From Mustelus asterias (taxonomy: Eukaryota): 64,000 bases of DNA. Below the pieces are notes generated by a model, which did no database searches, was not told where the DNA came from, and saw nothing but the letters and a program-made list of their open reading frames with translations. Positions 8,031 to 9,276 of this stretch are shown one piece after another (positions within the stretch are counted from its first letter, which is position 1; every line of letters starts with the position of its first letter). The DNA is taken from NCBI RefSeq assembly GCF_964213995.1, contig NC_135830.1:992001-1056000 (forward strand), written 5' to 3'. The position numbers were made by a program, and so were the translations under genes.

Positions 8031-8227
8031 TGTCATGTATAGTCATCCAAGCCTCTCAGTTCTCGACGTATACTCCGATGTGATTTCACATCACAGTGTT
8101 CTTTTTTTTCATTGTTTTCATTCAACTAAACGTGCTATCCTTCCAAAATATTCATTAATAATTTCCCGCAAAACCAGCTGAGGAACAGTTAACTTGTTCC
8201 AGTGTTAAAGAAAACAAATCTGACGAT

Positions 8228-8304
8228 AGTTTGTGTATGACAGGAACCGTCTTCTCGATTGCTGTGGCAGTACCCACACAGTGGTCTAGCCCCGTTCAAA
8301 AACA
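8228..8304 (-). other. IgNAR D2 (core 8267-8276 TGGGTACTGC) with 5' 12-RSS and 3' 23-RSS
   Basis: CACAGTG-12-TCAAAAACA (plus, 8277-8304); CACAGCA-23-ACACAAACT (minus, 8228-8266). Confidence 0.92.
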
Positions 8305-8495
8305 GCTTCTCTGTTTGTCTGGGTGTTGAATACAGTTGCTGCGCATTCACATTTCAAATGCTGAGGTTTATGATCCTTGAACTATCACCAGATGTTTACA
8401 AATGTCCCCATTTCAAAATAGTATCCATAACTAAAATGCAGTTTCAGCCAGAAGAGCGAATAAAATTGTCTTGTATTCATTGGGAGATCGGAAGA

Positions 8496-8555
8496 TATTT
8501 TTGCAGAACTGGAAGTTCAATCTTATTGTTGTGAGCAATTTCGACCTTTGCAGAA
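8496..8555 (-). pseudogene. Relic V 3' end (FCKGRNC) with orphan 22-spacer RSS
   Basis: TTC TGC AAA GGT CGA AAT TGC T then CACAACA-22-GCAAAAATA; homologous to 8963-9022 at a 467-bp offset. Confidence 0.8.
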
Positions 8556-8693
8556 CATCACAATGTTCCTTTTCTCATTGTTTTCTTTTGAGTAAACGTG
8601 CTAAACCTCCAGGTTATTCATTAATGACTTCCCGCAAGACGAGTTGAGAAACAGTTAAAATGTTCCAATGTTAAAGAAAACAAATCTGAAGAT

Positions 8694-8772
8694 AGTTTGT
8701 GTATGACAGGAACCGTCTTCTCGATTGCTGTGGCTGTATCCGTACACAGTGGTCCAGCCCCGTTCAAAAACA
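8694..8772 (-). other. IgNAR D1 (core 8733-8744 TACGGATACAGC) with 5' 12-RSS and 3' 23-RSS
   Basis: CACAGTG-12-TCAAAAACA (plus strand, 8745-8772); CACAGCA-23-ACACAAACT (minus strand, 8694-8732). Confidence 0.92.
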
Positions 8773-8962
8773 ACTTCTCTGTTTGTCTGGGTGTTGAATA
8801 CAGTTGCTGCGCATTCACATTTCAAATGCTGGGATTTATGATCCTGCAGCTGTCACCAGATATTTACGAATGTCTCCGTTTCAAATAGTTTCCATAACTA
8901 AAATGTAGTTTCAAGCAGAAGAGCGAACAAAATTGTTTTGTCTTCATTGGGAGTTCCGAAGA

Positions 8963-9000
8963 TATTTTTGTATGACTGGTAGTTCAATCTTATTGCTGTG
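8963..9000 (-). other. V 3' recombination signal sequence (22-bp spacer)
   Basis: CACAGCA + 22 nt + ACAAAAATA abutting the V coding end. Confidence 0.92.
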
Positions 9001-9276
9001 GGGAATCATAAGCTTTGCAGTAAAATGTCACACTATCTTGAACTGTTAAGTCCTTGATTTTCAGAGAAAACGACTTGCTTCCCTTGTTGACTGATTCAAC
9101 ATATCGGCCGCCAATGGTGATGCGTTCCCAATCTGTTGAACCAGGATTTTTCCGAAACCAGCTTGTTGCACACAAGCTATAGCTAGCATCCCTTAGGACG
9201 CAGTTGATTGTCAGAGATTCGCCTATTTCTTTCGTTGCCATTCGTGGTGTTTGATCGACATGTGCACTGAAGGCAT
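9001..9276 (-). CDS. IgNAR: IgNAR variable (VNAR) germline V exon, open frame
   Basis: Acceptor ttttctccatacAG; translates [92 protein letters not shown]22, W36, C83 and the VNAR-specific CDR2 deletion; directly followed by an RSS. Confidence 0.97.

Follow-up and report, generated by a model that had tools for sequence, protein, structure and literature searches.

The stretch of DNA analysed here (the window) comprises 64,000 nucleotides of a Mustelus asterias contig (NC_135830.1, positions 992,001 to 1,056,000), and the locus within it is, as judged from its sequence, a shark IgNAR cluster, coding for a heavy-chain-only antibody, on the minus strand, with the gene order V-D1a-D1b-D2-D3-J and with C1-C5 just beyond the window edge. 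The leader exon (9417-9459, minus strand) and the V exon (9001-9276, minus strand) are open throughout, and a contig from run X4 skips the interval between them (9277-9416), which has GT..AG ends. Among solved structures, the top 30 matches of the V exon are VNAR or shark nanobody entries (best E 1.2e-38), and its identity to spiny dogfish VNARs is 71-73% for the three, the only ones, that the protein search returned. Its CDR1 carries a non-canonical cysteine, the position of which differs between this cluster and its paralog (the other cluster, L002, reads ASCGLYATSW), and such a shifted CDR1 cysteine would alter the geometry of the CDR1-CDR3 disulphide. Downstream of J, five constant-type exons, all stop-free, lie at G000:C71:982169-991844; we take these to be C1-C5 from their order and likeness.

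Recombination signal sequences (RSSs) were scanned with the consensus heptamer and nonamer. The V exon is followed by an RSS with a 22-nt spacer (8963-9000, minus strand, CACAGCA / ACAAAAATA). D1a is a 12-nt segment (8733-8744, minus strand) with the frames YGYS, TDT and RIQ (its counterpart in the paralog has 10 nt and a GYS frame), and is flanked by a 5' RSS with a 12-nt spacer (8745-8772, plus strand, CACAGTG / TCAAAAACA) and a 3' RSS with a 23-nt spacer (8694-8732, minus strand, CACAGCA / ACACAAACT). Next in gene order comes an orphan V-type 22-RSS (8496-8533, minus strand, CACAACA / GCAAAAATA), with 3+3 mismatches and with the CAC and the A-tract kept. D1b has 10 nt (8267-8276, minus strand; frames WVL, GYC and GT), between a 5' RSS with a 12-nt spacer (8277-8304, plus strand) and a 3' RSS with a 23-nt spacer (8228-8266, minus strand). 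The D2 cassette (7951-8030, minus strand) consists of a 12-RSS (8003-8030), the 14-nt D2 (7989-8002) and a 22-RSS (7951-7988), and the D3 cassette (7567-7634, minus strand) of a 12-RSS with 3+3 mismatches (7607-7634), the 12-nt D3 (7595-7606) and a second 12-RSS (7567-7594). The last elements are a 23-RSS (7211-7249) and J (7167-7210, YYYDGAGTVLTVNS), which has a GT donor, together spanning 7167-7249 on the minus strand. Setting the orphan 22-RSS aside, the spacers thus read 22, 12-23, 12-23, 12-22, 12-12 and 23 from V to J, an order that is compatible with the 12/23 rule and allows deletional joining, and all four D segments have intact-looking 12/23 signals.

An IgNAR cluster has been described as one V, three D, one J and five C (PMC8692893), with up to three D segments in another account (PMC5192425) and, in others, as one V, three or up to three D and one J, some with pre-joined D (PMC4622739, PMC4279169, PMC12907318). 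One V, one J and five C exons are present both here and in the paralog; in place of the textbook three D segments, four RSS-flanked D segments are found in both (2/2) of the unjoined IgNAR clusters found in this genome. Four D segments are therefore a variant organisation of the same isotype. The mostly open-access literature that we searched, as far as its available text goes, yielded no prior report of a four-D IgNAR or of the duplication described below.

The preliminary description had proposed that the extra D was born by tandem duplication of a unit made of the V end and D1, and this proposal is borne out by two colinear units and by a paralog with the same junction. The unit proximal to V (unit A, 8555-9020, minus strand) contains the real V end, its 22-RSS, a spacer, the D1a cassette and a further spacer; the distal one (unit B, 8088-8553, minus strand) contains a V-end remnant, the orphan 22-RSS, a spacer, the D1b cassette and a spacer. 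In the sense of the gene, the order within each is a 20-nt V 3' end, a 22-RSS, a 190-nt spacer, a 12-RSS, D, a 23-RSS and the downstream spacer. Aligned with each other, the units show 86.75% identity over 468 columns with three gap openings (E 1e-159), and the local alignment score of 622 compares with 31 for the best of 200 shuffles. The pair is not among the repeats reported by Tandem Repeats Finder. Each unit has 466 nt, their start-to-start spacing is 466-468 and the net gain is 467 nt, with one extra base at the duplication junction (8554), between the spacer end at 8555 and the V remnant at 8553. The junction string was located at 8550-8565 exactly as described before. A V 3' end had been ascribed to both units; unit A does hold the real one, but unit B holds only a 20-nt fossil (8534-8553, minus strand) that begins around the Cys codon of the YC motif and of which the first 8 nt are identical (8/8) to the original.

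Several observations bear on whether the duplication is real, since a false tandem created by the assembly had been named beforehand as a finding that would overturn it. A second complete IgNAR cluster (L002, G000:C71:734894-737244) is found about 262 kb away on this contig, in inverted orientation; over 2351 nt its V-J interval is 94% identical, both units are present in it and meet at the same junction, and it has an open V and five stop-free C exons. When one unit was searched against the genome, these four unit copies were all that came back (2/2 candidates scored). We also compared the short-read contigs of eight of the 22 runs with the locus, and contigs cross the junction in four of the eight, from three organisms (X1 and X4; X5; X17), each reaching 31 nt or more beyond it in both directions. 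The V remnant and the spacer end are adjacent nowhere but at the junction, so a bridging contig means that the locus has two units. The contigs of X1 (8465-8610) and X4 (8334-8625), two samples of Mustelus asterias, bridge it with no differences, the runs X1-X4 all coming from one study, possibly the one behind the assembly. Bridging is likewise gap-free in X5, from organism B (8474-8698, 15 differences in 225 nt), and in X17, from organism G (8499-8645, 14 differences in 147 nt). No bridging piece was found for X3, X15 or X16 among the matches listed, X11 had no coverage of the site, and joints skipping the unit were seen in none of the eight runs. With the units 13% apart, both present in an independent paralog and their junction bridged in three organisms, an assembly artefact is ruled out for practical purposes.

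The preliminary description had also called for alignment of the units to three-D clusters, and no three-D paralog was found in this genome among the candidates scored. Among the 73 V matches obtained (150 of 346 candidates scored), two are the pair described here, one (54%) is germline-joined and 70 stand at 51% or less. The last group corresponds to about 70 further NAR-like V segments with 37-51% identity (L006-L032, on C71 and many small contigs), probably V cassettes of NAR-TCR; 13 of 27 such lower-identity loci were scanned and show either V with a 22-RSS, one 12/12 D and J, or a V ending in a 12-RSS (an apparent VD pre-join), with no likeness to the unit. With no three-D outgroup in the genome to align, the three-D ancestral state would rest on the published papers. 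The apparently germline-joined gene (L005) is a third IgNAR-like gene, in which V, CDR3 and J form one open exon with no RSS between them (G000:C71:2929466-2929798, minus strand). Its constant region (L042-L045, G000:C71:2920175-2923277, minus strand) has open C3, C4 and C5 exons with 65-75% identity to those of this cluster and a C2 match with three stops, no C1 being found there; the gene may be either a pseudogene or a germline-joined IgNAR whose constant region is short.

The four unit copies allow the order of events to be read in relative terms. In a four-way alignment of 470 columns, 32 of the 36 informative sites set the A units of both clusters apart from the B units, three group the units by cluster and one otherwise; because most sites group units and not clusters, the tandem duplication appears to be older than the duplication of the whole cluster, and we infer from the bridging contigs that it predates the split from organisms B and G as well. 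Divergence between units is uneven. A low-divergence tract of unit A (8669-8848, minus strand; partner 8203-8380) occupies columns 174-353, 180 of the 470, and contains just one of the 32 unit-diagnostic sites; K2P between units is 0.05-0.09 inside it and 0.19-0.24 outside, and between clusters it is 0.06-0.08 inside and 0.07-0.09 outside. Constraint would also slow the tract between clusters, and gene conversion is therefore the likelier cause, so that about 180 nt over the D cassette were likely homogenised after the duplication. Permutation gave p values of 0.02, 0.0015 and 5e-5 for tracts of 120, 150 and 180 columns, the size having been picked post hoc. The sole diagnostic site left in the tract falls inside D (GYS in D1a, GYC in D1b), and this Ser/Cys site proves nothing by itself, although it involves a CDR3 cysteine. 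The conservation of the D signals falls within the tract and is not independent proof of selection. Absolute dating was rejected, as the only rate found, 7e-10 per generation (PMC10587355, available in part), gives an implausible age at K of about 0.2, and only relative order is used. Also rejected was an older duplication in which the V-D1 interval would be homologous to D2-D3: a 14-nt exact match lies downstream of both 22-RSSs, but with the RSSs removed, 32 of 500 shuffles scored as high. Among ten interval pairs, only V to D1a against orphan to D1b stood out (0/500 shuffles), D1b to D2 against D2 to D3 being weak after ten tests (6/500).

How the first copy arose is read best from its breakpoints, and here the earlier proposals fare less well. 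RAG was thought a possible initiator, in that a cut or nick at the V RSS or at a cryptic spacer heptamer in a germ cell would have been repaired into a duplicated unit. Germ-line RAG activity has been proposed for the joined genes of sharks (PMC2193156, available in part), a germline-joined IgNAR-like gene lies on the same contig, and a heptamer-like site is found 4 nt from one break, whereas only 5.4% of the positions in the window lie 10 nt or less from a site with CAC and at most one mismatch. With two breaks to consider, the probability is nevertheless about 10%, which makes the coincidence uncommon but not compelling. The perfect heptamer CACAGTG reported at 8092-8098 (plus strand) is indeed present, but it has no nonamer, as is true of CACAATG at the end of unit A (8559-8565, plus strand); in all four copies, at least five of nine positions are mismatched at spacings of 11-13 and 22-24. 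It is perfect, moreover, in one of the four copies of the genome, the paralog and runs X5 and X16 having A at 8096 (CACAATG), and is likely a later substitution. According to the same source, RAG cuts next to an RSS, and the signal and the intervening DNA are removed (PMC2193156). The two breaks are both away from heptamer borders, by 20 nt on the V side (upstream of the V heptamer) and by 4 nt on the spacer side (beyond the heptamer-like site); heptamer and flank remain joined on both sides of the duplication, and no 12/23 pair of complete RSSs lies at the two breakpoints. Loss of signals, P nucleotides and a signal joint are not seen; DNA was gained and every RSS was kept. A nick followed by resection may still be compatible with these data, yet we regard a RAG-initiated duplication as very improbable.

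Joining at microhomology, or unequal crossover, around the shared pentamer TCACA (TGTGA in the sense of the gene) was the other origin proposed, with the junction altered later. The pentamer does occur at 8091-8095, 8558-8562 and 9028-9032, at most 12 nt away from each breakpoint of this copy, but out of register with the junction. Moving the extra base permits a 1-nt overlap with 1-nt loss, and divergence of about 20% could have worn away a longer microhomology. Against this, the spacer runs 3 nt beyond the pentamer and 7 nt of V are missing, whereas a crossover within the pentamer would be followed directly by V sequence; the pentamer is absent from the V of the paralog and from the V-end loose end in X15 and is likely derived here, and chance alone places a shared 5-mer within 12 nt of two randomly chosen points of the locus in 6496 of 18148 trials (36%). 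Because the parental ends share at most 1 nt (0-1 nt in register), unequal homologous crossover could not have started the duplication, and it may have acted only after the first one. An origin at TCACA is accordingly unlikely, if less so than one by RAG.

We think it probable, with good though incomplete confidence, that the four D segments go back to a 466-nt block copied head to tail, likely by non-homologous repair or a template switch in the germ line and not by RAG. The block would have taken in the final 20 bases of V and reached almost to the end of the D1-D2 spacer, and the non-homologous junction with its one inserted base would reflect end joining of staggered breaks or a switch of template in replication, two sources that such a junction does not distinguish. 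Later conversion would have evened about 180 nt and left, or been followed by, one fixed Ser/Cys difference inside D, while the V end carried along in the copy would have turned into a fossil whose orphan 22-RSS is drifting from consensus. Once two units were in place, unequal crossover between them could yield five D segments. Under the 12/23 rule, V (22) should be able to join D1a, D1b, D2 or D3; D1a, D1b and D2 should each be able to join any downstream D; and only D3 (12/12) should be able to join J (23). Eight deletional routes with up to five junctions are thus predicted, against four and four for three D segments, and the extra D would be predicted to lengthen and diversify CDR3, giving longer and more varied binding loops.

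A duplication that is real but neutral or harmful would also fit this non-homologous origin, as it concerns function: the extra D would be rarely used, or the orphan 22-RSS would divert joins to dead ends. The orphan signal cannot be called dead, since it keeps the CAC, the 22-nt spacer and the A-tract, and its 3+3 mismatches are no worse than those of the obligatory D3 5' RSS. Joined straight to D3, it would produce a stuck allele and hence selection for its own decay. No rearranged V-D-J joint was found among the matches listed in the run contigs, which drop rare variants. In X4 the leader intron is removed, and contigs of X3 and X4 run from 7166 into a paralog-like C1 start with the D region unrearranged; these spliced contigs are as expected for germline transcripts, the runs not being catalogued as RNA. 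On the other side, both complete IgNAR clusters have four D segments with an open V and C1-C5, and the junction persists in two other organisms. The orphan signal, moreover, has moved away from consensus (2+2 to 3+3 mismatches), its heptamer being CACAACA here and CACAAGA in the paralog against CACAGCA in V, whereas the D signals remained unchanged or came nearer to consensus. We consider a neutral or harmful extra D rather improbable. At the other extreme, a shark lineage could have reached a four-D IgNAR through a self-expanding module of V end and D1, with D1a and D1b used together in five-junction CDR3s, the Ser/Cys codon held apart against conversion to control CDR3 disulphides, and the V-RSS live; this fuller picture is tentative, and we lean against it as a whole.

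Compared with the IgNAR of nurse shark and whitespotted bamboo shark (V-D1-D2-D3-J-C1-C5), the cluster is alike in its VNAR-type V, its IgNAR J, its five C exons, its cluster organisation and its D segments with an RSS on both sides. It differs in having four unjoined D segments, with D1 present twice at 87% flanking identity, and a V-end fossil and orphan 22-RSS between D1a and D1b. Like germline-joined shark immunoglobulin genes (nurse shark NS4 light chains, IgM1gj and the D1-D2 fusion of type III IgNAR), it records a heritable change in a V-D-J cluster near RSSs; in those genes, however, the DNA between two RSSs was deleted and coding ends were fused at RSS borders, as described in PMC2193156, whereas here DNA was added, every RSS keeps its flank and the breaks lie away from RSS borders. 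The C2/C3 exon pairs of shark UrIg2 are another likeness, being a tandem copy with later homogenisation by conversion according to PMC12227049, but what was copied here is a D cassette that recombines, together with a captured V end, and this alters the number of rearrangement steps. On the best reading, the D number grew here by ordinary duplication and conversion, not by RAG, and the four-D IgNAR extends a known system through a mechanism that is not new. Reviews, as far as their available text goes, attribute almost all primary VNAR diversity to three D segments and four joins, and a four-D lineage changes the CDR3 length and cysteine pattern to be expected, which is relevant to the choice of shark species for VNAR libraries and to repertoire annotation. 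The readable breakpoint is a direct record of D-number growth in minicluster immunoglobulin genes, and the orphan V-RSS allows the rate of decay of an unused signal to be followed in nature.

The DNA around the cluster has a history of its own. The two IgNAR clusters are part of an inverted segmental duplication of more than 40 kb with 91-98% identity (G000:C71:727001-777000 and 952001-1012000), broken by separate repeat insertions. Two SINE-like copies in the J-C1 intron form a 337-nt inverted repeat (5040-5376 and 5953-6289, 94% complementary). A 200-nt direct repeat occurs elsewhere in the window at 47904-48103 and 48710-48901, 806 nt apart, and on the minus strand each copy has CACAGTG with a weak nonamer at a 12-nt spacing, no Ig frame being noticed there. 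The open frame at 36658-37089 (minus strand) is presumably, by its likeness, a fragment of a class A GPCR. Long open frames at 30252-31457 (plus strand), 33812-35596 (minus strand) and 21930-22955 (minus strand) were read as retroelement proteins, presumably a Penelope-like reverse transcriptase with a GIY-YIG end and CR1/L2-like reverse transcriptases.
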